A stretch of DNA of 64,000 nucleotides. Origin: Solirubrobacteraceae bacterium (GTDB lineage: Bacteria > Actinomycetota > Thermoleophilia > Solirubrobacterales > Solirubrobacteraceae). Under the pieces are notes generated by a model that ran no database searches, was not told where the DNA came from, and worked only from the letters and a program-made list of their open reading frames with translations. Within the stretch, counting starts at the first letter, position 1, and the number at the start of each line of letters is the position of its first letter. A program made the position numbers and the translations under genes. Where the stretch lies: positions 21,868-85,867 of the forward strand of contig JANWIP010000002.1 of NCBI GenBank assembly GCA_025449845.1. Direction: 5' to 3'. Positions 12,478 to 57,403 of the stretch are shown here, one piece after another.

Positions 12478-12615
12478 ACATTTGATACCCGCCGAGGATG
12501 TCTCTGTTACAGCAGCAGGCAGCACAACAAGTAGAAGCCGAAGGGCTACCGCAGAATCGCGCAAGCACGAGAGCCATTCCGGGGAACGCGCAAGCCTCCG
12601 GCCTATTCCCAAAAG

Positions 12616-12689
12616 AGCCGGCGACCGGACTCGAACCGAGCAACCCCCGCTTTACAAGAGCGGTGCTCTACCAATTGAGCTACGCCGGC
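12616..12689 (-). tRNA. tRNA-Thr (anticodon UGU)
   Basis: Reverse complement: GCCGGCGTAGCTCAATTGGTAGAGCACCGCTCTTGTAAAGCGGGGGTTGCTCGGTTCGAGTCCGGTCGCCGGCT. It has a 7-bp acceptor stem, a CT-TGT-AA anticodon loop and a GGTTCGAGTCC T-arm. No CCA is encoded. Confidence 0.9.
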
Positions 12690-26900: not shown

Positions 26901-28310
26901 ATGCGTTCCCACAAGATGGCCCTGGCCATCGCGGTTGCGATGGCACTGCTCACGCTCGCCCCGACCGCCGATGCGAGGCCCGCACGGCGCATCTTCTTCC
27001 CCGGCCGCTGCCGGGTCAACATCCACGTCGCGCCGCGCCAGATAACGGCGGGCGATCCAGTGACGATTTTCGGGCGCCTGGCCTGTCAGCGCCACCGTGG
27101 CGAAGCAGGCCAGGTAGTGAAGCTCTACCACCAGGTGGCAAACTCATTTGGTTACAGCTATGTGCAGAGCACGAGGACCGACGCGCAGGGCTTCTACGAG
27201 TTCACGCGTGCGGATGGCGTTGTGCTCAGCAACCGCTCGTGGTTCGTTGCCGCGCGCGCAACCCACAGCGAGGCCCGGCGGATCAGAGTTGCCGCGCAGG
27301 TCGCGCTGAGCGGCCCTGCGGAAGGCACGCAGCTGCTGACGGGCCATCCCAATGCGGTGACATTCACAGGCACCGTCAGCCCGGTGGACGTAGGCGCGCG
27401 CGTGATATTGCAGCGCCAGGACGCGGCGACGGGCTCGGAATGGCGTCGCATCGACCGCGGCTTCGTGCAGCCGGGCGGGACGTTCTCCATCCCGCACACC
27501 TTCATCGTCCCCGGCGACGCGAACATTCGCGTGCTGGTGCGCAGCGAGGGTCGCAACATTCCCAGCGCCTCCAACCTGCTGGAGTACGAGATCTCTCAGG
27601 CCCAGAACCCGGCGCTAACGATCACGGCCTCAGCCGACCCGATCCAGTTCGGCCAGTCGGTGACGATCTCGGGAACTGTCGGGGGAGGCGCCAACCTGCC
27701 GGTGGAGCTGCTGGCCCGCACGCGGCTGCAGAATCGCCTGGCGCCGATTGCAACGGTCACAGCAGACGCAAACGGCAACTACTCCTTCCCCCCACAGGCG
27801 CCCGTGAACAGCACCTTCTACGCGGTCAAGGCGCCAAACTCATCGTGCGAAGGCACGCCGGGCGTGAGGGCATGCAGGAGGGGGCTAACATCAGCCATTC
27901 TCTACGAGGGCGTGCGCGACGTACTCAGCGCGCAGGTCTCGGCAACCACCGTGCAGGCTGGCAGCCAGCTGACCTTCACGGGCACCGTAGCCCCCAGCCA
28001 TCCTGGCCACATCATCTATCTGCAGCGCCAGAATGCGCATGACAGCGGCTTCCATGTAGTCGAGGTGGCATTGGTCAACCCCGACTCGACCTACTCGATA
28101 GCGCACAGGGTCTATGACCCGGGCACGAAGGTATTCCGCGTCTACATCCCGGGCGGCCCGGAGAACCAGGGCACGGCCAGCCAGCCGTTCACGATCCAGG
28201 TCACTCCCGCTCCCGCCGCGGCGCTCATGCCCGAAGCCCCCGGCAATACCTCACTCCCCTCCGAAGGCTCGGAAAGCTCCGGAGAAGGCGGTGAACGCCA
28301 GGGGCGGTAA
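26901..28310 (+). CDS. secreted protein made of about four Ig-like (carboxypeptidase-regulatory-like) beta-sandwich repeats
   Basis: Signal peptide MALAIAVAMALLTLAPTADA with an AGAGGAGAGG RBS. The module recurs as ..GDPVTIFGRL..VKLY.. / ..VTFTGTVSP..VILQRQ.. / ..VTISGTV..VELLAR.. / ..LTFTGTVAP..IYLQRQ.. Confidence 0.7.
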   Translation: MRSHKMALAIAVAMALLTLAPTADARPARRIFFPGRCRVNIHVAPRQITAGDPVTIFGRLACQRHRGEAGQVVKLYHQVANSFGYSYVQSTRTDAQGFYEFTRADGVVLSNRSWFVAARATHSEARRIRVAAQVALSGPAEGTQLLTGHPNAVTFTGTVSPVDVGARVILQRQDAATGSEWRRIDRGFVQPGGTFSIPHTFIVPGDANIRVLVRSEGRNIPSASNLLEYEISQAQNPALTITASADPIQFGQSVTISGTVGGGANLPVELLARTRLQNRLAPIATVTADANGNYSFPPQAPVNSTFYAVKAPNSSCEGTPGVRACRRGLTSAILYEGVRDVLSAQVSATTVQAGSQLTFTGTVAPSHPGHIIYLQRQNAHDSGFHVVEVALVNPDSTYSIAHRVYDPGTKVFRVYIPGGPENQGTASQPFTIQVTPAPAAALMPEAPGNTSLPSEGSESSGEGGERQGR

Positions 28311-43577: not shown

Positions 43578-44342
43578 CTAGGAATTGAGCTCGTAGAGAA
43601 GCCGCAGACCGGTGAGTGTCAGAAGGTCGTCGACCTCGTGGATCTCCTCGGTGAAGGGAACAACGAGGTGGCCGAGCCCGCCCGTGGCGATGACCGAGAG
43701 ACGTTCCTCAAGCTCAGTGTAGAGCCGGCGCAAGATCGCGTCGACGGCCCCGGCATAGCCGAAGACGACGCCGGAGCGGATGGCGTCGATGGTGTTCTTG
43801 CCGACCACCGTGCGCGGTGCGGCAAGCTCAACCTTGGGCAACCGCGCACCGCGCTCGGTCAGCGCGTCGAGCGAGATCTCGATGCCGGTCATGAGGGCGC
43901 CGCCGATGTACTCCCCATCGCGCGAGAGGACATCGAAGGTGGTGGCGGTGCCGAAGTCCACGCAGACGGCGGAGCTGCCGAAGCGGGCGCGCATGGCGAC
44001 AGCGTTGACGAGCCGATCGGCGCCGATCTCGCGTGGGTTGTCGTAGCGGATGGCCATGCCGGTGCGCAGACCGGGACCGACGACGAGCATCTCGTGGTGC
44101 AGGTAGCGCTGAGCCATGGCAGTCCATTCGGGCTCAAGCGCGGGCACGGTGGAGGAGACGATCGAAGCGGAGAGATCCTCGAACCCCAGCCCGCGCAGCT
44201 CGAGCAGGTTGCGCAAGGCAGCCCCGAGCTGATCGGCGGTCGAATCGCGCACGGTGGCAAAGCGCCAATGCTCGAGCAGCTCCTCGCCACGGTAGGCACC
44301 GAAGTGGGTCTGGGTGTTTCCAACGTCGACAACGAGCAGCAT
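43578..44342 (-). CDS. coaX: type III pantothenate kinase
   Basis: MLLVVDVGNTQTHFG.., VDFGTATTFD and ATGGL motifs. Confidence 0.9.
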   Translation of the reverse strand: MLLVVDVGNTQTHFGAYRGEELLEHWRFATVRDSTADQLGAALRNLLELRGLGFEDLSASIVSSTVPALEPEWTAMAQRYLHHEMLVVGPGLRTGMAIRYDNPREIGADRLVNAVAMRARFGSSAVCVDFGTATTFDVLSRDGEYIGGALMTGIEISLDALTERGARLPKVELAAPRTVVGKNTIDAIRSGVVFGYAGAVDAILRRLYTELEERLSVIATGGLGHLVVPFTEEIHEVDDLLTLTGLRLLYELNS

Positions 44343-44416
44343 GGGCGGCCCGGGAGCCTACCCGACCCTCCCCACGTGGTAGACCCCGGGCTGGCCCTCC
44401 TATATGCTCAGAGGCG

Positions 44417-45181
44417 ATGGCGGCAAACGGCACGAGTGCAAAGAAGCTGAAGCTGTACGCGCTCCCAGGCTCACACCCATGCGCGGCGGTGGAAGTCGCG
44501 ATGCGACTAAAGTCGATCCCTTACCACCGCGTGGATCTGCTGCCGATGGTGCAGATGGCGGTGGGACCGGTGCTGTGGGGCGGCATGACGGTGCCGGGCG
44601 TGCGCGTGAATGGCGAGAAGCTGGTGGGCTCGCGCACGATCATGCGCAAGCTGGACGCGATGGCGCCCGAGCCTCCACTGCTGCCTGCCGATGCCGCGCG
44701 GCGCGAGCAGGTGCTGGAGGCCGAGCGCTGGGGCGATGAGGTGTTCCAGAGCATGCCCAGACGCATCCTCGATGCGGGGTTCCTGCGCGATGCGGGCTGC
44801 ATGGAGAGCTACGCGGCCGACGCCAAAATGCCGCTCCCCCGCCCGATGCTGCGCCCCGCTCTCCCTCTGACGGCGCGCCTGATGGCGTTCCGCAACAAGG
44901 CACAGGATGAGAACGTGACGGCCGACATCAAGGCCCTCCCCATACAGCTTGAGAAGGTAGACGCATGGATCGCCGAAGGTCTGCTGGGCGGCGAGCAGCC
45001 AAACGCGGCCGACCTACAGATCGGCTGCACGATGCGGCTGCTGAACACGATCGCCGATATTCGCCCGCTGCTGGAGAGCCACGCGGCGATGCAGCTGACG
45101 CGCTACTTCCCCCCGATGGTGGGTGAAGTCCCGGCGGGCACCCTGCCGGCAGAGTGGCTGCTAGCCGCCACCGCGGCTTGA
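44417..45181 (+). CDS. glutathione S-transferase-like (thioredoxin-fold N-domain) protein
   Basis: The ATG at 44417 gives ..LKLYALPGSHPCAAVEVAMRLKSIPYHRVDL..PGVRVNGEKLVGSRTIMRKLD, which has GST_N/glutaredoxin-like topology. The upstream part of the 382-aa ORF is antisense to coaX. Confidence 0.6.
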   Translation: MAANGTSAKKLKLYALPGSHPCAAVEVAMRLKSIPYHRVDLLPMVQMAVGPVLWGGMTVPGVRVNGEKLVGSRTIMRKLDAMAPEPPLLPADAARREQVLEAERWGDEVFQSMPRRILDAGFLRDAGCMESYAADAKMPLPRPMLRPALPLTARLMAFRNKAQDENVTADIKALPIQLEKVDAWIAEGLLGGEQPNAADLQIGCTMRLLNTIADIRPLLESHAAMQLTRYFPPMVGEVPAGTLPAEWLLAATAA

Positions 45182-45191
45182 CCTAAGAGGC

Positions 45192-46694
45192 TCAGCCGCG
45201 CAGCGTGACGCTGCGGGTCGTGCCGATGGGCGCACCATGCAGTGGCGTGAGCGTGACCTGGACCACCACCGGCAGCCGGTGGCGACGATGCAAGGCGCGC
45301 TTGGCCTGCGCATTGAGGGAGACCACAAAGGGCACCCGGCCAGCCGCGAGGGAGGCGCGGATGAAGCGTCCGATACGCACCTGCTTAACGTGCTTGCGGG
45401 CAAGCAAGGCGGAGCCCGCGAGCAGGTCCACCTCCAGGTGCCCGCCAGCGCCGGCGGCCGATATGTCAAGCGAGCCATGGACGGCCGGGCCATGCTGAGC
45501 GCCGGCAACCTTGATGGCGGTGGACGCGCCGCCAACCAACGGCGAGCCGCCGATGACGATCGGAGACACTCCAGAGCTCAAGGCCACTGGAACAGACGCG
45601 ATCGGGGCCGGCGTCACGGTCGTGCTCGGGCTGGTCGGCGTTTCCGTAGACCCGGAGGGGGGTGAAGGTGAAGGGCTCGGCGAAGGTTCAGGAGGCGAGG
45701 CGGTCGTGAATTCCCGATCGAGCCCGGGCGCATCGCCGAACGAGTTGTGGGCAACGATCTCAAAGTGGTAGACGGTGCCCGGCGCGAGTCCGCTGAGCGG
45801 GGCGAAGACGACGCGGCCGATGGCGCCTTCGCCGGCTGACTGGACGCTGGTGGTGTGTCCGTAGCTGTCGCTAGTGCCGTACTTGAAGAAATAGGTCGTC
45901 GCCTGACCGTGCGGGTTGACGGTGCCGCCGAGGGTCGCACCGGTTTCACTCACAGCGCTGGCTTCGCCGGTGCTGGCGGTGGGCGCTCCGGGCGGCGAGG
46001 CGGTGGTGAAGGTGTGGTCGGCACCAAACACGGTGCTGGCGCCCGCGGCATAACTGGCAACGATGCGGAAGTGATAGAGCGTGCCGGGAACGAGCCCCGA
46101 CACCAGCGCCGACTCGGCGTGACCGACGCTGTCTTCGCCGGCCGACAACGTGCTGGTCTGTTCTCCGTAGCTGCTGCTGGTGCCGTAGTTGAAGTAGTAG
46201 GAGGTCGGCTGGCCCTTGGGGTTGATGGTGCCGTTGAGCGTCGCTTCGCTCTGGCTCACCGCGGAGGCACTATCGGCGCTGGCGAGCGGCGGCAGAGAAC
46301 CGCTGGCGTTGACGTAGACGAAGGCCTTCATGGCGGCGCCGTGAACGCCGCACCAGAATTCATAGGTGCCCGCGGTGGTGAAGGTGCAGGACCCCGACCA
46401 GCCGGGGCCGGCTTCGCCGATCGTGTGGGGCAGACCTGTACAAGCTGGCGCGGCGGGCCCGGACTCGAACACCGGATAGTGGTAGTTGACGCCGCTGGGG
46501 TAGGCGAAGGAGACGGTGCTACTCGGGGTGATCCCCACTTCGGCGGGCACCAGGCCGTTGGCCTCCCAGAAGTGTTCGTAGAAGCCGCTGTCGACAGCGG
46601 TGATGCTGGCGCTGGCTCCGGCAACCGCCGGGAAGACGGCGGCCACCACCGCAAGCAAGGCGATGAAGGGAAGGTGACGCTTGCGCAATCTCAC
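45192..46694 (-). CDS. secreted protein: cupredoxin-like domain, two FN3-like modules of about 95 aa, Pro/Ser linker and a C-terminal domain
   Basis: The GTG at 46694 gives the signal peptide MRLRKRHLPFIALLAVVAAVFPAVAGASA. Putative type-1 Cu ligands are NYHYP...FWCGVHGAAM. The tandem modules have the form ..ATL.GT.NP.GQ.T.Y.F.YGTS.SYG..T. Confidence 0.7.
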   Translation of the reverse strand: MRLRKRHLPFIALLAVVAAVFPAVAGASASITAVDSGFYEHFWEANGLVPAEVGITPSSTVSFAYPSGVNYHYPVFESGPAAPACTGLPHTIGEAGPGWSGSCTFTTAGTYEFWCGVHGAAMKAFVYVNASGSLPPLASADSASAVSQSEATLNGTINPKGQPTSYYFNYGTSSSYGEQTSTLSAGEDSVGHAESALVSGLVPGTLYHFRIVASYAAGASTVFGADHTFTTASPPGAPTASTGEASAVSETGATLGGTVNPHGQATTYFFKYGTSDSYGHTTSVQSAGEGAIGRVVFAPLSGLAPGTVYHFEIVAHNSFGDAPGLDREFTTASPPEPSPSPSPSPPSGSTETPTSPSTTVTPAPIASVPVALSSGVSPIVIGGSPLVGGASTAIKVAGAQHGPAVHGSLDISAAGAGGHLEVDLLAGSALLARKHVKQVRIGRFIRASLAAGRVPFVVSLNAQAKRALHRRHRLPVVVQVTLTPLHGAPIGTTRSVTLRG

Positions 46695-46879
46695 GATCTG
46701 ACCCGCCTTTCGCTGTATGACATCCCCCGCGGTCCGGCGTCCATGCGACGACGACGGTCGGGCTCCTCGATTGGCAAGACGTCCGCACGGAGCATTCCTT
46801 CCCACGGCCTCGTCAATTCGTCCGAGACGAGTGGTCCAGCCGCTGGCTATCGCTGCGGTCGAGCCGAAAGGGGGCCGAG

Positions 46880-47230
46880 ATGAGCATGCGGTGTGCAGGC
46901 GCGCTGGTGACAATGACGGTGCTGGCGATTGCGGTGCCAGGCGCGGGAGCAGTCCAGGCGCCAGCCCTTCACGAGGCGCAGGCATCCGCGAGTCATGTTG
47001 TGGTGCTGGAGCACAAGCGCTTCCTGCCGGGCGCGGTGTCGATCCGCCGCGGAGAAAGCGTGACGTGGCTCTGGCGCGACGGCCAGATCCCGCATAACGT
47101 GATCGGCCGCGGCTTTCAGTCGCGCGTGGTGACCCGAGGGTCATTCAGCGTGCGCTTCGCGCAGCGCGGGACGTACGCCTATACGTGCACGGTGCATCCG
47201 CACATGGACGGCACGGTGATCGTTCGCTGA
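46880..47230 (+). CDS. small secreted cupredoxin (amicyanin/plastocyanin-like blue copper protein)
   Basis: Signal peptide, then VTWLWRDGQIPHNV....YAYTCTVHPHMDGTVIV. This supplies a full H...C-x2-H-x2-M ligand set. Confidence 0.75.
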   Translation: MSMRCAGALVTMTVLAIAVPGAGAVQAPALHEAQASASHVVVLEHKRFLPGAVSIRRGESVTWLWRDGQIPHNVIGRGFQSRVVTRGSFSVRFAQRGTYAYTCTVHPHMDGTVIVR

Positions 47231-47237
47231 GCGACGC

Positions 47238-47753
47238 TCAGGCTTTGCCCACGAGGAGCGGCGGTCCAGCCCAGCGAACACCCTCGGTCAAAGGCAGCGT
47301 AAGCAGCGCATCCGCCAAGCGCTGCCCAGCGGGCGTAGCCAGCTCAATGTCGAGCTCAAGCGCGGGGATGAGCACGAAGCGGCGGGTGAGCACCTGCGCG
47401 TGAGGCAAGGTCATGCGCTCGTGACGCAGTGTGAGGTCCCCTAATAGGAGTACGTCGATGTCGATCGCACGCGGGCTGTGGCGCTCGTACTCCGATGGAC
47501 GCCCCATCTTTCGCTCAAGACCCTTGACGGCATCGAGCAGATCGAGTGGCTCAAGCTCGGTCTCAATGCGCAAGCAGGCGTTGAGAAAGCTGTCTTGGTC
47601 GAGGATCACTCCGACGGGGTCGGTGTCATAGAGGGAGGAAGAGGCGAGCACGCGCACGCCAACGGCGGGCAGCGCGTCGGCGGCAGCTTGCAGATGCTGG
47701 CGACGCTCACCGATGTTGGAGCCGAGGCCCAAGAGGCCGATGCGAGCAGGCAT
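47238..47753 (-). CDS. folK: 2-amino-4-hydroxy-6-hydroxymethyldihydropteridine diphosphokinase
   Basis: ATG at 47753. GLGSNIG, LYDTDPVG, PRAIDIDVLL and RRFVLIPALE motifs. Confidence 0.9.
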   Translation of the reverse strand: MPARIGLLGLGSNIGERRQHLQAAADALPAVGVRVLASSSLYDTDPVGVILDQDSFLNACLRIETELEPLDLLDAVKGLERKMGRPSEYERHSPRAIDIDVLLLGDLTLRHERMTLPHAQVLTRRFVLIPALELDIELATPAGQRLADALLTLPLTEGVRWAGPPLLVGKA

Positions 47754-47853
47754 GGGCGAGGACGGTAGCCGAGAATCAAGTTCCTCCACAAAACTGGCCG
47801 CCTGGCCAGTATGATGCGATGAACGCCCGCGGCAGCGACCAGGAGGTCTCCAG

Positions 47854-49092
47854 ATGGCATCGACGGCAAGCAGCGATATCAAGGACGTGCTCCTCACCGA
47901 GCGCGAGCACTGGCAGAAGGGCGTGCCGCTTGAGCTGTTCGAGCGGATGCGCAAGGAATGCCCGGTGCACTGGACCTCCGAAATCACCGAATTCCCCGAG
48001 GAGGCCGGCTTCTGGTCGGTCACGCTGGGCGAGGACGTCCACACGGTGAGCCGCGACTTCAAGACTTACTCCTCGGAACTGGGCGGCGTGACGGCCGCCA
48101 ACATCGGCTTCCCCATTGAGCTCTCGCGCGCGATGTTCATCGGCATGGACCCCCCCAAGCACGACCGCGTCAAGGCGCTGTTCCAGGCGGGCTTCACCCC
48201 CAAGCGGATTGCTGCCCACGAGGACGCTATCCGCGCGATCACGGTGGGAGTGCTGGACCGCCTGGAGGGCCAGGAGACATGCGATCTGGTCAATGACGTG
48301 GCGCAGCCAGTGGTCTCGCGCGTGATCGGCAGCTTCATGGGCATTCCGCCCGAGGACGACGAGATCTGGGCGCGGCTGATGAACTCGACGCTGGCCGCCG
48401 GCGACCCCGATCTGAACCCACACGGCGACATCCAGGCAGGCATCGAAAAGGGCGTGGCGGAGATCTTCCAGCGCTGCGGCAAGCTGATCGCCGAGCGCCG
48501 CGAGCACCCGACCGATGACCTTACGAGTGTGCTGGTGCATGCCGAAGTGGACGGCGAGAAGCTTGAGGAACACGAGATCGTGATGGGCTTCTTCCTGCTG
48601 GTGGCCGCCGGTAACGACTCCACCAAGGCGACCTACTGCAGCGGCATGAAGGCGCTGATGGAGAACCCCGATCAGCGCGAGCTCGTGCTGGCCGATCCCG
48701 CCCTGATCCCCGGCGTGGTGGAGGAGTCCCTGCGCATGTTCCCCGCCTTCGCGCACTTCCGCCGCACGGCGAGCTGTGACACCGAACTGAACGGACAGCC
48801 GATAAAGGAGGGCGAGAAGGTGGTCATGTGGTACGTCTCCTCCAATCGCGACGAGGCACGCCATGTGGACCCCAACCGCTTCGATGTACGCCGCGAAGAG
48901 GAGCACCAGGCGTTCGGCGCCGGTGGCCGTCACTTCTGCCTGGGCACCGCACTGGCTCGCCTAGAGCTGAGGGTCCTCTTTGAGGAGACCCTCAAGCGCT
49001 TCCCGGCCATGGAGCCGGTCGGCAAGCCATCGATCGTCGAATCGGTCTTCCTCAATCAGCTCAAGACGCTGCCGGTGCGCCTGAAGCCGTAA
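47854..49092 (+). CDS. cytochrome P450
   Basis: I-helix AAGNDST, EESLR (ExxR), and heme loop FGAGGRHFCLGTALARLE. Confidence 0.93.
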   Translation: MASTASSDIKDVLLTEREHWQKGVPLELFERMRKECPVHWTSEITEFPEEAGFWSVTLGEDVHTVSRDFKTYSSELGGVTAANIGFPIELSRAMFIGMDPPKHDRVKALFQAGFTPKRIAAHEDAIRAITVGVLDRLEGQETCDLVNDVAQPVVSRVIGSFMGIPPEDDEIWARLMNSTLAAGDPDLNPHGDIQAGIEKGVAEIFQRCGKLIAERREHPTDDLTSVLVHAEVDGEKLEEHEIVMGFFLLVAAGNDSTKATYCSGMKALMENPDQRELVLADPALIPGVVEESLRMFPAFAHFRRTASCDTELNGQPIKEGEKVVMWYVSSNRDEARHVDPNRFDVRREEEHQAFGAGGRHFCLGTALARLELRVLFEETLKRFPAMEPVGKPSIVESVFLNQLKTLPVRLKP

Positions 49093-49102
49093 GCAGGGCC
49101 GG

Positions 49103-49696
49103 CTACTTCTTCTTCGGTCCGTAGCGCTTGCGCGCGTGCTTCACGCACGCCGCCCGCTTGCTCTTTGGCTTCTTCTTGCAGGCCTTGAGCGCCTTGGCGA
49201 GCTTCTCGGCCTTGGTGAGGCGATGCAGCGCGATCGGCTTGGGAGTGGGCGGAGGACTTGTCGCGGGCGTCGTGGGAGTCGGCGCGGGAGCGGGGCTACT
49301 CATCGTGGTCGTGACCCCCGCGGCGGTGACGGTAACCGAGCCTGTCATTTCTTCGTGCACCGCACAGCGGAAGGTGTAGGCACCGGCCTGCGTGAAGGTG
49401 CAGCTTCCGCTCCACTGTTCCTTGGATGCTCCTTCGACGGGTACCGAGCTTGAGCACGTGGGCTTGACCTGGCTGGTCCAGATGACGCCATGGGGGGCAC
49501 TGGTGGCGCCTGTGGAGAATGCGACGCTGCCGCCAACGCCGACGGTGGACTGCTTAGGAGACCAGGCGTAGGCGGGATAGATGCCGTTGGACCCTGCCGT
49601 TACCGCTTCGACCGAGGGCGTCGTTTCCGAGCTGGCCATCGCCGGCAGCGCTGCCGCGACAATCCCTAGCAAAAGGACAAGGAAAAGCTTGCGCAT
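49103..49696 (-). CDS. secreted cupredoxin-like protein with a Pro/Thr linker and a lysine-rich C-terminal tail
   Basis: The ATG at 49696 shares one base with the MMPL TGA stop (TGATG). Signal peptide MRKLFLVLLLGIVAAALPAMA. Ligand set SAPHGV...FRCAVHEEM. Paralogous to the N-domain of the 45192-46694 protein (WSGSCTFT.AG.Y.F.C.VH). Confidence 0.7.
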   Translation of the reverse strand: MRKLFLVLLLGIVAAALPAMASSETTPSVEAVTAGSNGIYPAYAWSPKQSTVGVGGSVAFSTGATSAPHGVIWTSQVKPTCSSSVPVEGASKEQWSGSCTFTQAGAYTFRCAVHEEMTGSVTVTAAGVTTTMSSPAPAPTPTTPATSPPPTPKPIALHRLTKAEKLAKALKACKKKPKSKRAACVKHARKRYGPKKK

Positions 49697-51918
49697 CAAC
49701 CTTCCAAGACGCCGATAGGCGGAGATCCTTCCCGTGGTGTCCCCTCGCGCAAACCGATGCGCCGATGCAGCTTGCGCAGCGGCCGCGGCGCCCACCAGGC
49801 GCGCTCACCGAGGATGCCCATGATCGCCGGTACGAGCAGCGCGCGCACGACGGTGGCATCGATCGCCACGGCCAGCGCAGCGCCCACGCCCAGCTGCTTG
49901 ACGAAGAAGATATGGGAGCTCGCGAAGGCGCCGATCGCCACGCAGAAGAGCAGTGCGGCAGCTGTGACCAGGCGCCCAGTGCGCTCAAGCCCCCGAGCGA
50001 TGGCCTCGCGCGCGGGGAGACCTTCATCGTGGGCCTCTTTGATGCGCCCGAACAGGAACACGCCGTAGTCGGTGGAGAGCGCGAAGGCGATCACGAACAG
50101 CAGCACCAGATTAGCCTCCTCCAGGCCGCCGATCGGGCTGAAGCCGAGCAGCGAGGAGAAGTGGCCGTCCTGGAAGACGAGCACCAGCAGACCCGCGCCG
50201 ACGGCCACCGTGAGCAGGTTCATGGCCAGCGCAATCAGCGGCATCACAGCGGAGCCCGTCATCAGGAAGAGGAAGCCGCAGGTGACGAGCGCGAGGATCA
50301 TCAGCACCACGGGCACGTGCGCGGCGATCGAGGACTTCTGATCGATGAAGCCCGCGGTGGGGCCACCGACGAGGACGCCGCGCGGGTTGACGAGCGCGCG
50401 CAAACGCCTAACAAGAGCCTGGTTGGCGGCAGAGGCGCCCGAGCCCTGCGGCAGCAGATCGATCTCCCACTGCCCCTGGCCGAGATAGCGCGGCGGGGCC
50501 ACCTGCGCCTGTCCCGCGGCGATGCGCTGGGACTGCACCGCCAGCGCCTGCACGGCCGGTGCTACCGCGCCAGACCTGCCCTGGCCGCCGGTGCCCTGCC
50601 CAGAGCCGCCACGCCCACCCTGGCCGCCCGCGCCTGCCACCACCATGGTGATCGTCTGCGAGCCGTCCACGGCGAAGTCACTGGTGAGCACGCCTGAGAC
50701 CTGGCGCGTCTCCGAGGAGGCCGGCAACACGCGCGGGTCAGCCGGAGTCAACGCCAGACGCAGTGCGGGCGAAGCGATCGCCAGCAGCACCAAGGAGGTG
50801 AGCAGCGCGACGGTACCCGGACGGCGCATGACGGCACGCGCCAAGCGCGCCCAGCCGCCTTCCTCATCAGCACTCGCGGCGCGGGCCGTACCCCGCTGCA
50901 TCCACTTCGGCGAGAGCGCATCGATGCGCGGCCCCAGCGCGATCAGCACCGCGGGCAGCACCAACAGCGAGACGCCGCCGGCCATCAGCGCCACGGCCGC
51001 TCCCCCGACCCCCATCGAGTAGAGAAAACGCTCAGGAAAGACAAGCATCGAGGCCAGCGCGCCGGCGACGGTCAGCGAACCGTAGAGCACGGTGCGCCCG
51101 GCAGTCTGCAGCGTGCGCCCGATGGCCTCGCGCGGCTCCTGGCCGGCGGCGAGCTCCTCGCGGTAGCGCGAGAGCACGAACAGGCTGTAGTCGATCCCCA
51201 GCCCCAGCCCCACGCCAGTGACGAGGTTGACAGCGAAGATCGAGAGCCCCGCGAACTGGTCGACGAGGCGCAGGATCACGAACGCAAGCACGATCGCAAA
51301 GCCGCCAACGAGCAGCGGCAGCATCGCCGCGACGAGGCCGCGGAAGACCCACAGCGAGAGCAGCAGCAGGATCGGGAAGGCGAGCAGCTCGGCGCGCTCA
51401 AGGTCAGAGGCGGTGCGGCGGTTGATTTCATCGAAGGCGACGTCCTGCCCACCGAAGTGAACCCCGGAGCGGGCCAGCTGAGGACGCAGCTTGGCGACGG
51501 CCGAGGAGGACTCTTCCTGCGTGGCGAAGGCCGCCAGCACGACGCTCTCGCGGCCATCGCGCGAGACGAGCTGCACCAGATGACTGGAGGGATAGTCAAG
51601 CACCCGCTGAAAGCCCTTCTGCGCCGCCAGCAGTGCGGCGACGTGCGCGGCAAGGTGCTGCGCACGCGGGTCGCTGCGCACATCCCCGGAGCTCCTGACG
51701 AGCGCGGCCACGCCGTAATCGGGCGACTGCCCGGTGGCCCGCTGGATCGCGGCCTTGGTCCGCAGGCTCTGATCGTGCAGATCGTGGAAGTCGTTGGAGC
51801 GCCCCTTGAGAACGCTGGTCACAGGGGTCCCCAGCGCCGCGGCCAGCAGAAACACGATGCCGGCCAGCGTCAAAACACGGCGAGGATGCCCGGTGGCCAG
51901 AGCCGTCAAACGATTCAT
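49696..51918 (-). CDS. MMPL-family (RND superfamily) membrane transporter
   Basis: 740 aa with a duplicated 6-TM architecture. Typical MMPL segments (GIDYSLFVLSRYREE, STDYGVFLFGRIKEA). Confidence 0.9.
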   Translation of the reverse strand: MNRLTALATGHPRRVLTLAGIVFLLAAALGTPVTSVLKGRSNDFHDLHDQSLRTKAAIQRATGQSPDYGVAALVRSSGDVRSDPRAQHLAAHVAALLAAQKGFQRVLDYPSSHLVQLVSRDGRESVVLAAFATQEESSSAVAKLRPQLARSGVHFGGQDVAFDEINRRTASDLERAELLAFPILLLLSLWVFRGLVAAMLPLLVGGFAIVLAFVILRLVDQFAGLSIFAVNLVTGVGLGLGIDYSLFVLSRYREELAAGQEPREAIGRTLQTAGRTVLYGSLTVAGALASMLVFPERFLYSMGVGGAAVALMAGGVSLLVLPAVLIALGPRIDALSPKWMQRGTARAASADEEGGWARLARAVMRRPGTVALLTSLVLLAIASPALRLALTPADPRVLPASSETRQVSGVLTSDFAVDGSQTITMVVAGAGGQGGRGGSGQGTGGQGRSGAVAPAVQALAVQSQRIAAGQAQVAPPRYLGQGQWEIDLLPQGSGASAANQALVRRLRALVNPRGVLVGGPTAGFIDQKSSIAAHVPVVLMILALVTCGFLFLMTGSAVMPLIALAMNLLTVAVGAGLLVLVFQDGHFSSLLGFSPIGGLEEANLVLLFVIAFALSTDYGVFLFGRIKEAHDEGLPAREAIARGLERTGRLVTAAALLFCVAIGAFASSHIFFVKQLGVGAALAVAIDATVVRALLVPAIMGILGERAWWAPRPLRKLHRRIGLREGTPREGSPPIGVLEG

Positions 51919-51924
51919 GGCTCA

Positions 51925-51953
51925 TTTATAGTGACTGCTAACTAATTTGTCAA
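51925..51953 (-). promoter_or_regulatory. sigma-70-type promoter TTGACA-17 nt-TATAAA, with the -10 ending 6 nt before the MMPL ATG (predicts a leaderless mRNA)
   Basis: Minus-strand read: TTGACAaattagttagcagtcacTATAAAtgagccATG. The -35 is at 51953-51948 and the -10 at 51930-51925. No SD is possible. Confidence 0.5.
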
Positions 51954-51974
51954 GGGATACTGTTTTGCCTGCCC

Positions 51975-52082
51975 TTTTGCCAGCAAGACACGCCGCTATT
52001 TTGCCCGCAAGACACGCCGCTATTTTGCCAGCAAGACACGCCGCTAGACGGCTACTGCTTTTGCGGACAAGCTACGCCGCTA
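51975..52082. repeat. 24-bp direct repeats (TTTTGCCAGCAAGACACGCCGCTA): 3 near-perfect copies plus 1 degenerate copy, just upstream of the MMPL promoter
   Basis: Copies at 51975-51998, 51999-52022 and 52023-52046, with a degenerate copy at 52059-82. Confidence 0.9.
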
Positions 52083-52175
52083 GGCGCGTAGCGAAACAAC
52101 TCGATCTTGGCTTGCCGGCAGATGGAGAGGCATGCCAGTCGGTTCCTGCCTCGCATGCCAGCGCGTACGACACAG

Positions 52176-52706
52176 CTACTGCTCGGCCTCGCGCCAAACC
52201 TCGACTGAGACCTCATCCACCGGCAGCGGAATCGGCGGCTCCGGCTTGGCGGCCTTGACCCAGACGCCTTCGAGGTCGTAGTCGGCCAGTAGGCGGTCGG
52301 CGATGGTCGAGCAGAGCCGCTCCAAGGTCTTGTGCTGGCGCTGCTGGGCGATGAGGGCGACCAACTGACAGACCTCGCCGTAGTCGACGGTGTCCTCAAT
52401 CTCGTCGGTGACGGTCGCGTCGGTCTCGCCGACATCGAGGCGCAGGTCGAAGACGAGTCGTTGACCAACCTCACGCTCGGCGGCGCTTACGCCGTGGTGC
52501 GTGTAGAGCGAGAGGCCCGTGATCTCGATGGTGACGGACTCGAGCACCTCCTCATCACGGTCCTCGCCGTCGCCGTCGCCGTCGCCGTCCTCCTCGCCGA
52601 TGTCCTGGTCCTCATCCTCAAGACCCTCGACATCGAACTCGCGCTCGTCGAGCCCCTCCTCGTTCAGGTCGTCGTCCTCGCCGCTGGTGGGGCTGTCGCC
52701 GACCAT
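52176..52706 (-). CDS. folB: dihydroneopterin aldolase with an acidic N-terminal extension of about 55 aa
   Basis: Core is IEITGLSLYTHHGVSAAEREVGQRLVFDLRL...DTVDYGEV. The N-terminal extension is rich in D/E, includes a GDGDGDG repeat, and overlaps the folP 3' end by 43 nt. A shorter GTG start near 52545 is possible. Confidence 0.85.
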   Translation of the reverse strand: MVGDSPTSGEDDDLNEEGLDEREFDVEGLEDEDQDIGEEDGDGDGDGEDRDEEVLESVTIEITGLSLYTHHGVSAAEREVGQRLVFDLRLDVGETDATVTDEIEDTVDYGEVCQLVALIAQQRQHKTLERLCSTIADRLLADYDLEGVWVKAAKPEPPIPLPVDEVSVEVWREAEQ

Positions 52707-53593
52707 GCGCCCAAAGTAGCAGCCGCCGCGAGCAGCGCGGCACGCACCGGGGCCACGTCGTGCACGCGAAATACGCTGCCCCCCCGCTCGTAGGCCATGA
52801 CGCTGGTAGCAATTGTGCCCGGCAGCCGCTCTCCCACCTCGGCCGGCTCCCGTTGCCCACGAGCATCCGCAAGCAGCCGCCCTAGGAAGCTCTTGCGCGA
52901 AGTACCCACCACCAGCGGCCGCCCGAGCACCCGCAGCTCATCCAGGCGCCGTAGCAGCTCCAGGTTGTGTTGCAGCGTCTTGCCAAAGCCAATGCCGGGA
53001 TCGAGCAGCACCCGCTCCTCGCGCACGCCAGCAGCAACGGCGAAGCGCAGGCGCTCCTCCAGAAAGGCCTTGACGTCATCGACAACGTCCTCGTAGCGAG
53101 GGTCGTGCTGCATGGTGCGCGGCTCACCGAGCATGTGCATGAGGCAGCAGTCAGCCCCACTGCCCGCCACCACGTCAGCCATCGCGGGGTCCGCGCGCAA
53201 GGCACTGACATCGTTGACGAGCGTGGCGCCGGCAGCAAGCGCGGCGCGAGCAACGGCAGCCTTGGAGGTGTCGATCGAGATCTGCGCATCCGGCGTTCCG
53301 GCCAGACGCTCGATCACGGGGACGACGCGGCGCAGCTCCTCGGCCTCCCCCACCGGCTCGGCCCCCGGCCGCGTGGACTCCCCGCCGATGTCGAGGATGT
53401 CGGCCCCCTGAGCAACCAACTCGCGGCCGTGCGCGACGGCAGCCTGCGCGTCCAGAAAGAGACCTCCGTCGGAGAACGAATCCGGCGTGACGTTGACGAT
53501 GCCCATGAGGCGGAAGGGCAAATCGAGAGTGATGTCGACAGGGAGAGCTGGGATGGGAGGCTCTATTTTTCGTTTAAGTGCGCCATTGTCCAT
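52664..53593 (-). CDS. folP: dihydropteroate synthase
   Basis: MGIVNVTPDSFSDGG, DIGGESTRPG and GTSRKSF motifs. Confidence 0.92.
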   Translation of the reverse strand: MDNGALKRKIEPPIPALPVDITLDLPFRLMGIVNVTPDSFSDGGLFLDAQAAVAHGRELVAQGADILDIGGESTRPGAEPVGEAEELRRVVPVIERLAGTPDAQISIDTSKAAVARAALAAGATLVNDVSALRADPAMADVVAGSGADCCLMHMLGEPRTMQHDPRYEDVVDDVKAFLEERLRFAVAAGVREERVLLDPGIGFGKTLQHNLELLRRLDELRVLGRPLVVGTSRKSFLGRLLADARGQREPAEVGERLPGTIATSVMAYERGGSVFRVHDVAPVRAALLAAAATLGAWSATAPPAARTTT

Positions 53594-53707
53594 ACAACGT
53601 CAATACCATCGCACACAAACTTTAAAACAAAGACCCCCAACCCCCGCCTTTATCTTCCCTTTAGCCTCCGCGCTGGGCCTGGCTCCCCCATGCTGACCTC
53701 CGCTCCG

Positions 53708-53831
53708 CCTCCATCTCTGCCTTCTCGCCACCTCCATCCCTACCGTCGCGCCTCCATCCCTACCGTCGCGCCTCCATCCCTGCCGTCGCTCCGCCTCCAT
53801 CCCTGCCGTCGCGCCCCTCCATACTGCCGCG
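53708..53831. repeat. 20/23-bp tandem repeat, about 6 copies (CCTCCATCCCTACCGTCGCG), between the ftsH stop and folP start
   Basis: Copies begin at 53708 (degenerate), 53731, 53751, 53771, 53794 and 53814 (degenerate). Confidence 0.9.
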
Positions 53832-53839
53832 CCGCGCAC

Positions 53840-55783
53840 TCAGGCGTCGGCGGTGCCGCCGGCCAGTCCCGGGCGAGGCAGCGGCCGCGGCGCTTCGCGT
53901 CCGGCACGATCAGCCGGCGCGGTGGGTGCGGTCGGCTCAGGCGTGCTCGGCTCGTCGTCAGGCCCGAAGACTTCCTCCTCGGACTTGCCGGCGAGCAGGC
54001 CGAGGAACTCCTCCTTCTCGATGGTCTCGCGCTTGAGCAGGACCTCGGAGAGGTGCGTGAGGCTGTCGCGGTGCTCGCCGAGGATGTCTTTGGCGCGCTG
54101 GTGGGCGGACTCGACGATGCGCCTGACCTCGTCGTCGATCTCGCGGGCGATCTCATCGGAGTAATCGGGCTCGGTGGAGAACTCGCGGCCCAAAAATGGC
54201 TGACCATGATCGTGCCCGAAGACACGCGGCCCAAGCTTGTCGGACATACCGAAGCGCATCACCATCTGCTTAGCGGTGGCAGTGACCTTCTCGATGTCGT
54301 TGGAAGCGCCGGTGGTGATCTCACTGAAGACGATCTCCTCCGCGGCACGCCCGCCAAGAGTCATCGCCATGGTGTCGTTGAGTTCAGCACGGGTCGTGAG
54401 GAAGCGATCCTCCTGGGGCATCGAGATCGTGTAGCCAAGCGCCTGGCCACGCGAGATGACGGAGATCTTGTGCACGGGGTCGGAGTGCTCCAGGTAGTGC
54501 CCCACGATCGCATGCCCCATCTCGTGGTAGGCGGTGATGAGACGCTCCTTTTCGCTCATGACGCGCGTCTTCTTCTCGGGGCCGGCGATCACGCGCATGA
54601 TCCCCTCCTCAAGCTCAACCTGGCCGATCTCGCGCTTACCGGTGCGGGCCGAGAGCAAGGCCGCCTCATTAATCAAGTTAGAAAGATCAGCGCCGGTAAA
54701 CCCGGGGGTCTGCCCAGCCAAGGCGTCGATGTCGATCTGCTTGCCCAGCGGCTTGCCACGCGTGTGAACCTCAAGGATCTTGGCGCGACCCTTGCGGTCG
54801 GGGCGATCGACGGCGATCTGTCGATCAAAGCGCCCGGGGCGCAAAAGCGCCGGATCGAGAATGTCGGGCCGGTTGGTGGCCGCGATCATGATGATGTTGT
54901 CCTTGGCCTCAAAGCCGTCCATCTCGACCAGCAGCTGGTTGAGCGTCTGCTCGCGCTCGTCGTGACCGCCGCCGAGCCCGGCGCCACGGTGGCGACCGAC
55001 GGCGTCGATCTCGTCCATGAAGATGATGCAAGGCGAGTTCTGCTTGGCCTGCTCGAAGAGGTCACGCACGCGCGAGGCGCCGACGCCAACGAACATCTCA
55101 ACAAAGTCTGAGCCAGAGATCGAGAAGAAAGGCACGCCCGCCTCCCCGGCGACAGCACGCGCGAGCAAGGTCTTGCCGGTACCAGGAGGCCCATACAGGA
55201 GCACGCCGGTGGGAATGCGCGCACCGAGCGCCTGGAACTTCTTGGGGTTCTCCAAGAACTCCTTGATCTCGTGCAACTCCTCGACGGCCTCATCGACACC
55301 GGCGACATCACGGAAGGTGATCTTGGGCGAGTCAGCGCTGAGCCGCTTGGCGCGCGACTTGCCAAAGGACATCACCTTGGAGCCCCCGCCCTGCACCTGA
55401 TTCATGAGGAAGATCCAAAAACCGAGGAAGAGCACAAAGGGAATGATGTAGGTGAGGATCCCGAGCAGCACACTGCTCTTGTTGGTCTCCACGTTGAAGG
55501 GCACGTTCGCTTTTTCGAGCTGTGTGATCAGCTGTGGAGCGGCCTGGTCGACGTAGCCGACTTCGTGGGTCCCGCCCTTGACGAGCTGGACTTCGACAGA
55601 ATTGCCCTTCTGCTTGATCACGGCCTTCTTGACGTTGCCGTTGGGTATGTCCTTGGAGACAAGCGTCTGGTAGGTGTATTCCTGAGCCCCGCTCGTACCG
55701 GACGGAATCAGCCTGGTGGCGAGAAAGGCCACCAACACCACGATCAGGATCGGGAATGCGGCGCTTTTGAAAAATCGGCTCAT
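53840..55783 (-). CDS. ftsH: ATP-dependent zinc metalloprotease FtsH
   Basis: Two N-terminal TM segments, Walker [12 protein letters not shown] region, and zinc motif HEMGHAIV. Confidence 0.96.
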
Positions 55784-55795
55784 GAGCTGCTCACT

Positions 55796-56365
55796 TTACC
55801 GTGTCAACGCCGCAACATAAGGAAGGTTGCGGTAGCGCTCAGCGTAGTCTAGGCCGTAGCCCACCACGAAGCGGTCGGGTATCTCAAAGCCAACATAGCG
55901 CGTCGGCAGGTCCACCTTGCGCCGCTCGGGCTTGGTCAATAGCGCGCAGACCTCAAGCGATCCAGGGTCGCGCGAGCCGAGGTTGCGCAGCAGATACTGC
56001 AAGGTGAGCCCGGAGTCAACGATGTCCTCAACAATCAGTACGTCGCGCCCGGCGATGACGATGTCGAGGTCCTTGAGGATGCGCACGACCCCGGAGGAGT
56101 CTGTGGCCGAGCCGTAGGAGGCAACCGCCATGAAATCGACCTCTACGGGGATGTCGATGAAGCGCATCAGGTCGGAGAGGAAGAAGACGGCCCCCTTGAG
56201 CACGCCAATCAAGAGCAGCGAGCGCCCGGCGTAGTCGCGCGAGATCTCCGCGCCCAGCTCGGCAACACGCTTCTGCAACGCCTCGGCGTCGACCAGCACC
56301 TCGCCGATGCCGGGATCGCCCGGGGGCGATCCGTTGGCCGCCACGGCAGGCAGGGGATCGGGCAT
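55796..56365 (-). CDS. hpt: hypoxanthine phosphoribosyltransferase
   Basis: PRPP-binding motif VLIVEDIVDSGLTL. Typical Hpt N-terminal and C-terminal segments (GYGLDYAERYRNLPY). Confidence 0.92.
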   Translation of the reverse strand: MPDPLPAVAANGSPPGDPGIGEVLVDAEALQKRVAELGAEISRDYAGRSLLLIGVLKGAVFFLSDLMRFIDIPVEVDFMAVASYGSATDSSGVVRILKDLDIVIAGRDVLIVEDIVDSGLTLQYLLRNLGSRDPGSLEVCALLTKPERRKVDLPTRYVGFEIPDRFVVGYGLDYAERYRNLPYVAALTR

Positions 56366-56392
56366 GACAGGCAGTCTAGTCGTGCCTGAGCT

Positions 56393-57403
56393 CTAGTCGC
56401 GCTCGGCGTCGCGCGCGGGTGAGGGGTAGTGCGGCGCGATCTTGACCATGCGCAGCCGCCGCTGCTCGATCACGGCAGCGAGGAGCCCACCGATATGCAA
56501 CTCAGCCCGCCCCTGACGCCCCGCCAACTCCAGGATCTCCGCGACACGATCGCCCGCCTGAGGAACAAACGCGCCAGGCCCGGCCGCCCCCTCGGCCAGA
56601 CGCACGACGACCAGACGAGCAAGCGCGGGATGCAACTCGCCAAGACGCTCGATGGCAATCGAGGTCTCCCCATCGAGCTCGCGATCCACAAGCTGTTCGA
56701 GCAGGTCGGTCTCCTCACGCAACAGCTGAGCGGTACGCAGCACATTGCCATCGGCCCCAGGGTGCACGGCCCGTAAGGCCGCAAGCAACCCATGACGCAC
56801 GCGTCCGCGCGCGTAGGCGTCGGTCTCGTTGGTCGCGTCCTCCCGCCAGGCAAGCCCCCGCGCGACGCAATAGGCGGCAGTCTGCTCACGGGTGACCCCC
56901 AAGAGCGGCCGGATCAGACGCCCCTCAGCCGCGGGCATCCCGAGCAGCGCCCGCCGCCCCGGGGAGGCGGCGAGGCGATAGAGGACGGTCTCGATCTGGT
57001 CGGTGGCGGTATGCCCAACGGCCACAAGCGCATCATCGCGCTCGGCGAGCAGCAGAGCAGCCTCATAACGAACGTTCCGCGCCCACGCCTGCACATTCCC
57101 CGGTCCGCGCAAAGGCCGGAGCACTTCCAAGGCGACGCCCAATCGCTCACAGAGCCGCTCGCAGTGGTGCTGATCCTCCTCCGACGCCTCCGCACGCAGC
57201 CCGTAGTTGACGTGCAGCGCCCGGACCAAGCCCGCCCCGCGGAGATCCACGACAAGATCAAGCAGACAAACCGAATCGCGCCCCCCAGAGAGCATGACCA
57301 CAAGCGGGCGCCGGGCGGCGAGCAGACCGGTGCCCAGCACCTGCTCGCGAACCTCGACGGCAGCGCCGCGGCCCCCACCCTCGGGTCCGGCAGCTCCCTC
57401 CAT
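56393..57403 (-). CDS. tilS: tRNA(Ile)-lysidine synthase
   Basis: PP-loop VMLSGGRDS and HTATDQIETVLYRL. The ATG overlaps the upstream gene's TAA (TAATG). Confidence 0.88.
   Translation of the reverse strand: MEGAAGPEGGGRGAAVEVREQVLGTGLLAARRPLVVMLSGGRDSVCLLDLVVDLRGAGLVRALHVNYGLRAEASEEDQHHCERLCERLGVALEVLRPLRGPGNVQAWARNVRYEAALLLAERDDALVAVGHTATDQIETVLYRLAASPGRRALLGMPAAEGRLIRPLLGVTREQTAAYCVARGLAWREDATNETDAYARGRVRHGLLAALRAVHPGADGNVLRTAQLLREETDLLEQLVDRELDGETSIAIERLGELHPALARLVVVRLAEGAAGPGAFVPQAGDRVAEILELAGRQGRAELHIGGLLAAVIEQRRLRMVKIAPHYPSPARDAERD

Follow-up and report, generated by a model that had tools for sequence, protein, structure and literature searches.

Secreted cupredoxins, an MmpL3-like transporter and a cytochrome P450 among the fol genes of a Solirubrobacteraceae bacterium: a plausible mosaic of separately regulated units

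Auracyanin, halocyanin and sulfocyanin are membrane-tethered cupredoxins of single-membrane cells and archaea. MmpL3 is the mycobacterial exporter of trehalose monomycolate, and in MmpS-MmpL pairs a small secreted beta-sandwich protein is encoded directly upstream of the mmpL gene. In Myxococcus xanthus, the extracytoplasmic function (ECF) sigma factor CorE responds to copper, and a secreted cupredoxin-like protein is among the products of the curA copper-tolerance operon (PMC3707914). We analysed a window of 64,000 nucleotides from an uncultured Solirubrobacteraceae bacterium of soil (GCA_025449845.1, contig JANWIP010000002.1, positions 21,868 to 85,867 of the forward strand) in which proteins of these kinds are encoded among the fol genes, namely three secreted cupredoxins, here called cupA, cupB and cupC, a transporter of the MMPL/RND type and a cytochrome P450. 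On the minus strand the order is folP, folB, MMPL, cupC, folK and cupA, and three genes lie on the opposite strand, the P450 gene between cupC and folK, cupB between folK and cupA, and a GST-like gene after cupA. This set is embedded in a housekeeping block, with tilS, hpt and ftsH upstream and coaX, dus, greA, lysS, clpC, radA and disA downstream.

The initial annotation had taken the region as one island inserted into the folP-folB-folK operon and had suggested that the MMPL pump, the cupredoxins and the P450 make up a single extracytoplasmic redox or copper-handling module. Our analysis points, with slightly better than even confidence, to a mosaic of three separately regulated units in a variable slot, with the cupredoxins as an ECF regulon. 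The slot would sit inside a conserved ftsH-folP-folB-folK-...-coaX-dus-greA-lysS-clpC block. The first unit would be the MMPL gene, under its own housekeeping-type leaderless promoter plus an operator. The second would comprise cupB and the paralogs cupC and cupA, the latter two transcribed from ECF-sigma-type promoters. The third would be a cytoplasmic CYP125/124-like P450, acquired once in the window's clade, palindrome-controlled and divergent from folK. In most relatives, the cognate ECF sigma/anti-sigma pair lies between cupB and a cupredoxin gene designated cupC'; in the window's clade, this pair would have left the locus and cupC would have moved with its promoter to behind MMPL. Only the secreted copper proteins look like a coherent, uncharacterised and lineage-specific unit. 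Thus, the notion of an uncharacterised extracytoplasmic copper unit remains plausible, since cupC and cupA share a promoter type and the secreted proteins have intact sites, but the MMPL transporter and the P450 would not belong to it.

We compared this layout across Solirubrobacterales. A folK-profile scan gave 80 loci, one genome per species, and the window proteins together with those of a typical relative were mapped onto them by tblastn to build a gene-order matrix. Presence counts were made on the 54 species loci that span folB to the GST gene. The matrix showed at least five architectures. folB and folK were less than 700 bp apart in 18 of the 54 loci, MMPL was present in 31, before or after folK and sometimes inverted, cupredoxins were found in 38 and the ECF sigma/anti-sigma pair in 31. 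MMPL and cupredoxins (any of them) were distributed independently (odds ratio 1.07, p = 1.0). The ECF sigma gene was associated with cupredoxins (odds ratio 12, p = 3e-4, without correction for phylogeny). The P450 gene occurred in 10 loci, all of them with MMPL, none with the ECF sigma gene, and all with an ftsH at least 91% identical to that of the window. In 7 of these 10 loci cupC adjoins MMPL, and the other three have unrelated small genes at that place. In the minimal layout, folP, folB and folK are contiguous and are followed by cupB, the anti-sigma gene and the ECF sigma gene on one strand, with cupC' divergent. In the relative L080, the order is folB, MMPL, folK, a Lipoprotein_15 gene, cupB, anti-sigma, ECF sigma, cupC' and cupA, wherein cupB, anti-sigma and ECF sigma point one way and cupC' and cupA the other; the lipoprotein is of the Yx(FWY)xxD type (PF03640).

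The genes in the slot resemble their neighbours in GC content (0.65-0.71) and in GC3 (GC at third codon positions, 0.81-0.87), which is evidence against a recent transfer, and the slot showed no integrase or transposase. With a composition that does not deviate, no mobility genes in sight and an arrangement common to at least 10 species, the hypothesis of a horizontally acquired island was rejected, and the region is better described as a variable slot than as one inserted island. Small unrelated genes lie between MMPL/cupC and P450 in three relatives (L077, 7585-8543; L033, 7805-8245; L009, 10860-12002). The insertion in L009 is a glutamate-5-kinase gene, and the two others are unannotated small open reading frames with similar N-termini, conceivably antitoxin-like. 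These insertions suggest that the slot keeps accepting new genes. All the relatives recovered are known only from metagenome assemblies. The gene order is repeated in independent assemblies, closed chromosomes included, so it does not stem from mis-assembly, and NCBI assembly GCA_036554315.1 carries a locus identical to the window.

A conserved promoter motif links the cupredoxin genes. In 18 of 21 species, the spacer between the ECF sigma gene and cupC' contains cGGGAAGGATC-N12/13-GGCGTC(c/t)TT, which has the form typical of ECF promoters, and the consensus derived from these 18 species is GGGAAGGAT-N13-GGCGTC. In the window, the motif precedes cupC (49103-49696, minus strand) as GGGAAGGATC-N12-GGCGTC (49733-49708, minus strand), within the last MMPL codons and starting 37 nt before the cupC ATG. 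It precedes cupA (45192-46694, minus strand) as GGGAAGGAA-N13-GACGTC (46803-46778, minus strand), ending 84 nt upstream of the GTG start. cupB (46880-47230, plus strand) has no ECF-type site in the window. The motif also precedes the MMPL-adjacent cupC in 8 relatives and cupA in 9 relatives of the window's clade. A relaxed pattern gave 79 matches in 1.5 Mb of loci, 52 of which lie at most 400 nt upstream, on the same strand, of cupC', cupA, cupC, lipoprotein, cupB or MMPL genes. There were 20 before cupC', 10 before cupA, 9 before genes labelled cupC (8 of them MMPL-adjacent), 5 before the lipoprotein gene and 4 before cupB; chance expectation was 0.6 matches per window, both strands counted. 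A third motif in the window, at 27789 on the minus strand, was set aside as likely due to chance, being antisense inside a plus-strand gene (26901-28310) for a secreted protein (469 aa, signal peptide present, no Pfam match). In about 15 species (L016, L019, L025, L036, L040, L042, L054, L057, L063, L066, L067, L071-L073 and L079), an ECF-type promoter was also observed at the entry of the slot, some 10-110 nt after the folK match, where it would drive whichever gene follows, that is, the lipoprotein gene, MMPL or others; for L072, the promoter could not be linked to any gene.

In the proposed mechanism, an envelope signal, most plausibly copper or redox, would cause the membrane anti-sigma to release the ECF sigma factor, and the freed sigma would switch on cupC' or cupC, cupA, the lipoprotein gene and, in some species, cupB. 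The anti-sigma (L080, 11745-12536, minus strand; 41 orthologs) has the extracytoplasmic pattern FPYW..FGW..TVFY..GYAI..VTW.R.GHLCV..LASW, with no Pfam match. In the GHLCV stretch, the Cys is present in 42/42 and the His in 38/42 orthologs, and this extracytoplasmic domain could be a metal or redox sensor. The sigma/anti-sigma pair had escaped the initial annotation because it is absent from the window. The window has three ECF-type sigma genes of its own, all on the minus strand (10082-10699, 11124-11672 and ~25692-26150), whose products are 26-31% identical to the cassette sigma and none of which has the GGGAAGGAT motif upstream. Since at least 9 species have kept the promoter, the sigma and anti-sigma genes presumably persist elsewhere.

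We then considered the cupredoxins themselves. All three begin with Sec-type signal peptides, as read from sequence. cupB is a small amicyanin-like protein whose gene is convergent with folK and divergent from cupA. cupC consists of the signal peptide, a cupredoxin domain, a Pro/Thr linker and a basic two-Cys helical-hairpin tail (residues 153-197). cupA, of 500 aa (a 650-aa reading of its open reading frame proved over-extended), has a signal peptide, a cupredoxin domain, two FN3 domains, a Pro/Ser linker and a beta-rich C-terminal domain of ~115 aa. With the Pfam Copper-bind profile (PF00127), whose gathering threshold is 21.2 bits, cupB scored above it (32.8 bits), cupC barely above it (21.5 bits) and cupA just under it (19.8 bits); the L080 ortholog of cupA scored 23.2 bits, and fn3 and Pur_ac_phosph_N passed in cupA. 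The canonical His/Cys/His/Met type-1 copper ligand set is intact in each protein, as PHNV...CTVHPHM in cupB, PHGV...CAVHEEM in cupC and YHYP...CGVHGAAM in cupA. An alignment of 29 cupC, cupC' and cupA sequences shows no variation at His69, Cys111 and His114 and at least 90% conservation at Met117. It also reveals a further conserved pair of Cys residues, 81/99, which probably form a disulfide. cupB aligned with amicyanin 3c75 (E 1.8e-9) with all four copper ligands in register. These alignments bear out the earlier statement that the three domains keep a His...Cys-x2-His-x(2-3)-Met ligand set. The further claim that two of them are clear paralogs proved equally correct, as the cupC and cupA N-terminal domains are 32% identical over 135 aa (E 2e-9) and have WSGSCTFT.AG.Y.F.C.VH in common.

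Structure predictions agreed with these assignments. The AlphaFold model of cupC has a core with a predicted local distance difference test score (pLDDT) above 95, and its best fold matches in Foldseek were amicyanin, plastocyanin and pseudoazurin (probability 1.0). The full-length cupA model has a mean pLDDT of 64, with the second FN3 domain and the linkers poor, and only the cupredoxin, first FN3 and C-terminal domains of it are usable; its structural matches were FN3 chains and plastocyanin, the N-terminal domain matching plastocyanin 1m9w. A Greek-key beta-sandwich was thus found by model in cupC and in the cupA N-terminal domain, and by sequence alignment only in cupB. The three proteins resemble amicyanin, plastocyanin and pseudoazurin in this fold, in being secreted and in the ligand set His...Cys-x2-His-x2/3-Met with a short amicyanin-type loop. 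They differ from them in having no methylamine dehydrogenase or photosynthetic partner nearby and in scoring far below equivalog cut-offs, while cupC and cupA also have the extra Cys pair, unannotated C-terminal modules (with FN3 in cupA) and ECF-type promoters. Indeed, the amicyanin equivalog (TIGR02657) was rejected for cupB, at 42.9 bits against a cut-off of 110.2, and no mau-type genes were noticed in the annotated window or in the relatives' Pfam gene tables, although no search was aimed at mau genes. A 311-aa metagenomic protein, P0054, is cupC'-like with the Cys and His ligands replaced (..TYTLEDASMYYP..) and is presumably a degenerate, copper-free member of the family. In the tree of cupredoxin domains, the cupC' and cupA domains of L008, L011 and L019 cluster by genome and not with their positional counterparts, which suggests repeated duplication or gene conversion; this neighbour-joining tree is noisy and supports only the grouping of the MMPL-adjacent cupC copies.

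Canonical and invariant type-1 sites argue for one-electron transfer, and this is what the surface-held cupredoxins would carry out. The main alternative, possible though on the unlikely side, is that under the same ECF regulon the cupredoxins are instead CopI-like copper-tolerance or trafficking proteins, the ECF system being a copper-stress response. Control by an ECF sigma/anti-sigma pair is a usual feature of responses to envelope stress, and Myxococcus offers a precedent in its copper-dependent CorE and a copper-tolerance operon with a secreted cupredoxin-like protein, the curA cupredoxin being under the CorE/CorSR systems (PMC3707914). The likeness lies in an ECF sigma factor set over envelope copper proteins, here suggested by the promoter motif; the differences are another phylum, no detectable orthology and, in our proteins, canonical type-1 sites without a His-rich region. 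Two cupC'-cupA pairs located away from the fol genes, both also preceded by the ECF-type motif, have neighbours that would fit this alternative. In L011, the pair is followed in the same direction by genes for an SCO1/SenC copper chaperone and a thioredoxin, and in L008 two P-type ATPase genes lie ~3 kb away. However, SCO1 and thioredoxin could simply mature copper sites and disulfides. cupB gave a weak CopI match (E 0.004), yet with 17 bits against a cut-off of 280 for NF051440 the CopI assignment was rejected. The sequences show no stretches rich in His or Met that could bind copper, and complete invariant His/Cys/His/Met sites are a hallmark of electron-transfer cupredoxins.

In a single-membrane cell, which lacks a retaining periplasm, the C-terminal modules would hold the secreted cupredoxins at the surface. 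The cupC tail is modelled by AlphaFold as a confident helical hairpin behind a disordered linker. Its residues 153-197 (49106-49240, minus strand) follow the pattern KP(I/L)..LT.A.KLAKALKACKK.PK.KRAAC.K.A.KRYGPK, with two Cys and pLDDT above 93. Used as a 45-aa query, the tail recovered at least 308 protein clusters at E <= 1e-3, and in the best 150 of these 308 it lies mostly at or near the C-terminal end of proteins of 43-1680 aa. Many secreted proteins that are otherwise unrelated end with this tail; it is sometimes repeated and once stands at the N-terminus (P0053). The tail therefore looks like a general surface-retention or sorting module. The beta-rich domain of cupA (residues ~385-500; 45192-45540, minus strand) is modelled at pLDDT 89-97, is common to cupA and cupC' and is also found in L080 (13347-14141), with the pattern ...LEVDL...RRALHRRHRLP..V.V.LTP..G...; neither module has a Pfam match. 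Both would tether the cupredoxins at the cell surface. Beta domain and basic tail swap on otherwise similar cupredoxins (P0039 and P0043 versus P0001). In L009, the MMPL-adjacent cupC still has the cupC'-type beta domain, which suggests that the window's cupC is a relocated cupC' whose module was later exchanged for the basic tail. Auracyanin, halocyanin and sulfocyanin offer a parallel to this predicted arrangement, a blue-copper domain that an added anchor keeps on the cell surface; weak halocyanin-domain matches were obtained, and auracyanin was among the fold matches. In our proteins, however, the predicted anchor is neither a lipid nor a transmembrane one but follows a Pro/Thr linker as either a beta domain or a basic helical hairpin that could form a disulfide.

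The MMPL transporter (49696-51918, minus strand; 740 aa) matched PF03176 with 233 bits (5e-69) in two stretches. Both Asp-Tyr pairs, the proton-relay motifs of TM4 and TM10 in the MMPL family, are present in its translation (GIDYSLF and STDYGVF), and its best solved relative is MmpL3 (6e-83). It resembles MmpL3 over residues 151-731, in the twelve-helix MMPL core with both Asp-Tyr relay pairs, and aligns only to MmpL3 residues ~159-754. In contrast to MmpL3, it has no long cytoplasmic C-terminal domain, and with 333.7 bits against a cut-off of 1400 the MmpL3 equivalog (NF052608) was rejected. Mycolates are not known from the host lineage. Upstream of the gene, a promoter is found at 51925-51953 (minus strand), with a -35 box TTGACA (51953-51948), a 17-nt spacer holding an operator-like TTAGTTAGCAGTCAC and a -10 box TATAAA (51930-51925); the whole reads CTTGACA-AA-TTAGTTAGCAGTCAC-TATAAA-TGAGCC-ATG. 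The ATG lies 6-7 nt past the -10 box, which implies a leaderless mRNA. This promoter is a conserved block in a 19-species alignment, and in 39 of 40 loci the motif TTAGTTAGnnnTCACT immediately precedes MMPL, wherever the gene is placed. In many relatives the spacer element reads ATTAGT-N8-ACTAAT. A generic promoter and terminator scan gave one weak match and nothing useful; it missed the MMPL promoter because the -10 box is TATAAA. MMPL is probably an autonomous, repressor-controlled and proton-driven envelope exporter, presumably of a lipid.

Could cupC nevertheless belong with MMPL? The MMPL stop and the cupC start overlap by 1 nt (TGATG), which the initial annotation took as coupling. The overlap is real, but it does not have to reflect coupling, as an ECF-type promoter for cupC lies within the 3' end of MMPL, and the two genes adjoin in only 7 of the 10 clade loci. 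By analogy with the MmpS partners of MmpL4/5, cupC could be an accessory MMPL subunit in the window's clade only, the remaining cassette being independent, a reading that we consider quite improbable. In the window, as in L009, L012, L013, L014, L027, L033, L065, L068 and L094, MMPL is followed immediately by a cupC gene in the same orientation, these MMPL-adjacent copies form one clade in the domain tree, and in most of them the beta C-terminal domain is replaced by the basic tail. Cupredoxins and MmpS are both beta-sandwich proteins. However, the ECF-type promoter before cupC is kept in 8 of 9 relatives, the cupC-MMPL spacing ranges from -1 to ~150 nt, three clade members have no MMPL-adjacent cupC, and invariant copper ligands would be needless for an inert accessory. 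Unlike MmpS, cupC is encoded downstream of its transporter gene, matches Copper-bind only, with no MmpS Pfam match, and keeps a copper site and a promoter of its own. We regard as unlikely, on the same sequence data, a broader reading in which the ECF pair, the Yx(FWY)xxD lipoprotein and the tethered cupredoxins form an undescribed extracytoplasmic system, specific to Solirubrobacterales, that senses and responds to copper or redox, and in the window's clade cupC has in addition been recruited as a copper-bearing partner of the MmpL3-like transporter.

The third unit is the P450 gene (47854-49092, plus strand), which belongs to the CYP125/124/268 lipid omega-hydroxylase group (PF00067, 81.8 bits, 6e-23). 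Its translation has the heme-thiolate loop FGAGGRHFCLG and the ExxR motif as EESLR. It is 44% identical to the reconstructed CYP125 ancestor 8vxi (3e-95) and 37.5% to CYP268A2; natural CYP125 entries match far more weakly (~1e-52 to 1e-58). In P450 nomenclature, family membership is given by more than 40% identity to named members. Unlike CYP125, CYP124 and CYP268, it has no cholesterol-catabolic or redox-partner genes adjacent, and its identity to natural members is near or below 40%. The 100-bp spacer between P450 and folK contains a perfect 18-bp palindrome, ACTGGCC-GCCT-GGCCAGT (47793-47810, plus strand), which abuts a TATGAT -10 box (47810-47815), 38 nt before the P450 ATG. In a 9-species alignment, the palindrome is invariant while its surroundings vary. 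It is present in 17 of 17 P450-bearing loci and in 0 of 77 others, with a single copy in the window, and is presumed to be a repressor operator combined with a promoter. No regulator gene adjoins it. The translation has no signal peptide, which indicates a cytoplasmic enzyme and hence no electron exchange with the secreted cupredoxins.

These data bear on the proposal of the initial annotation, a single extracytoplasmic redox/copper module in which MMPL, the P450 and the three cupredoxins would act together, possibly in the tailoring and export of a lipid or metallophore. In its favour, the genes lie close together, MMPL and cupC overlap, the P450 is found only with MMPL (10 of 10 loci), the P450 is of a lipid omega-hydroxylase group and the transporter of an MmpL3-like lipid-exporter type, and in four species an ECF-type motif lies upstream of MMPL (see below). 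Against it stand the independent distribution of MMPL and cupredoxins, the three different conserved promoter/operator signatures, the absence of cupC beside MMPL in 3 of 10 clade members, a slot without metallophore or lipid biosynthetic genes, and a cytoplasmic P450 that is encoded on the opposite strand and occurs in a single clade. We therefore hold a single module to be very improbable.

Several observations weigh against the mosaic reading as well, or limit it. In four species with the order folK-MMPL, an ECF-type motif lies 180-220 nt upstream of MMPL, and some co-regulation of MMPL and cupredoxins is possible in them. MMPL-cupC adjacency is kept in 7 of 10 clade species, with the 1-nt overlap in the window. 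The 64-kb window has no ortholog of the cassette sigma or anti-sigma, only paralogs of ~30% identity, and among the 120 homologs of the L080 sigma listed, all at least 65% identical, none came from recognisable contigs of the window's clade. It is the conservation of the motif that suggests its sigma dependence in this clade. The co-occurrence statistics are per locus, not per genome, and not corrected for phylogeny, and the distribution of the P450 amounts effectively to one evolutionary event. Finally, sequence does not separate an electron-transfer role of the cupredoxins from one in copper tolerance.

As far as novelty is concerned, each protein is, by its sequence, a new member of a known family, and the cupredoxins and MMPL fall outside every specialised equivalog definition. 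What looks new is the ECF-controlled set of multi-domain tethered cupredoxins and the two C-terminal modules without a Pfam match. A literature search found no paper linking cupredoxins with MmpL or Thermoleophilia with MmpL; the literature on Solirubrobacterales cupredoxins or PF03640/SCO0930 held nothing relevant, and we did not find this cassette described. The locus illustrates that genes may look like a tidy cluster, with start and stop codons that even overlap, and yet be a mosaic under independent control in a variable slot of a housekeeping block. The conserved ECF-type promoter with its targets, blue-copper proteins and a lipoprotein, would provide a concrete regulon for Solirubrobacterales, which are abundant soil bacteria, and the two widespread C-terminal modules may serve to retain secreted proteins on the cell surface. 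If the copper/redox role is true, the system would be an example of how extracytoplasmic electron transfer or copper handling is organised in a soil bacterium with a single membrane.

The fol genes themselves were confidently assigned. folP (dihydropteroate synthase; 52664-53506, minus strand; Pfam Pterin_bind 7e-89) was given the start of the identical NCBI locus L005 (280 aa). folB (dihydroneopterin aldolase; 52176-52706, minus strand) matched Pfam FolB (6e-31) and TIGR00525 (103.9 bits, above cut-off), and folK (HPPK; 47238-47753, minus strand) matched Pfam HPPK (7e-34) and TIGR01498 (110.9 bits). The end of folB (52176) and the start of folK (47753) are 4,422 bp apart. Profile searches thus confirmed every gene named in the initial annotation and its statement that MMPL, a cupredoxin and an opposite-strand P450 separate folB from folK; a split fol operon is supported for the window's lineage. 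folK is monocistronic here, with opposite-strand genes on both flanks, of which the P450 gene separates it from folP and folB, and it appears to have a TAnnnT box of its own shortly before its start. An Rfam scan of 44000-56500 gave no match even at E <= 1, and thus no folate-linked riboswitch. ftsH (53840-55783) directly precedes folP. In mycobacteria the order is ftsH-folE-folP-folB-folK; there is no folE between ftsH and folP here (53507-53839), and in the relatives' Pfam gene tables folP likewise follows ftsH. The N-terminus of FolB (52542-52706, minus strand) carries an extremely acidic, D/E-rich extension of ~55 aa, similar in L080 and hence a feature of the lineage. A tRNA-Thr gene is located at 12615-12689. 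In the spacer between folB and MMPL, a 24-nt unit, TTTTGCCAGCAAGACACGCCGCTA, is repeated three times in tandem (51975-52046; TRF score 137, 95% matches). This repeat is specific to the window genome and is missing from the aligned spacers of its relatives, even from that of the closest one, L012.

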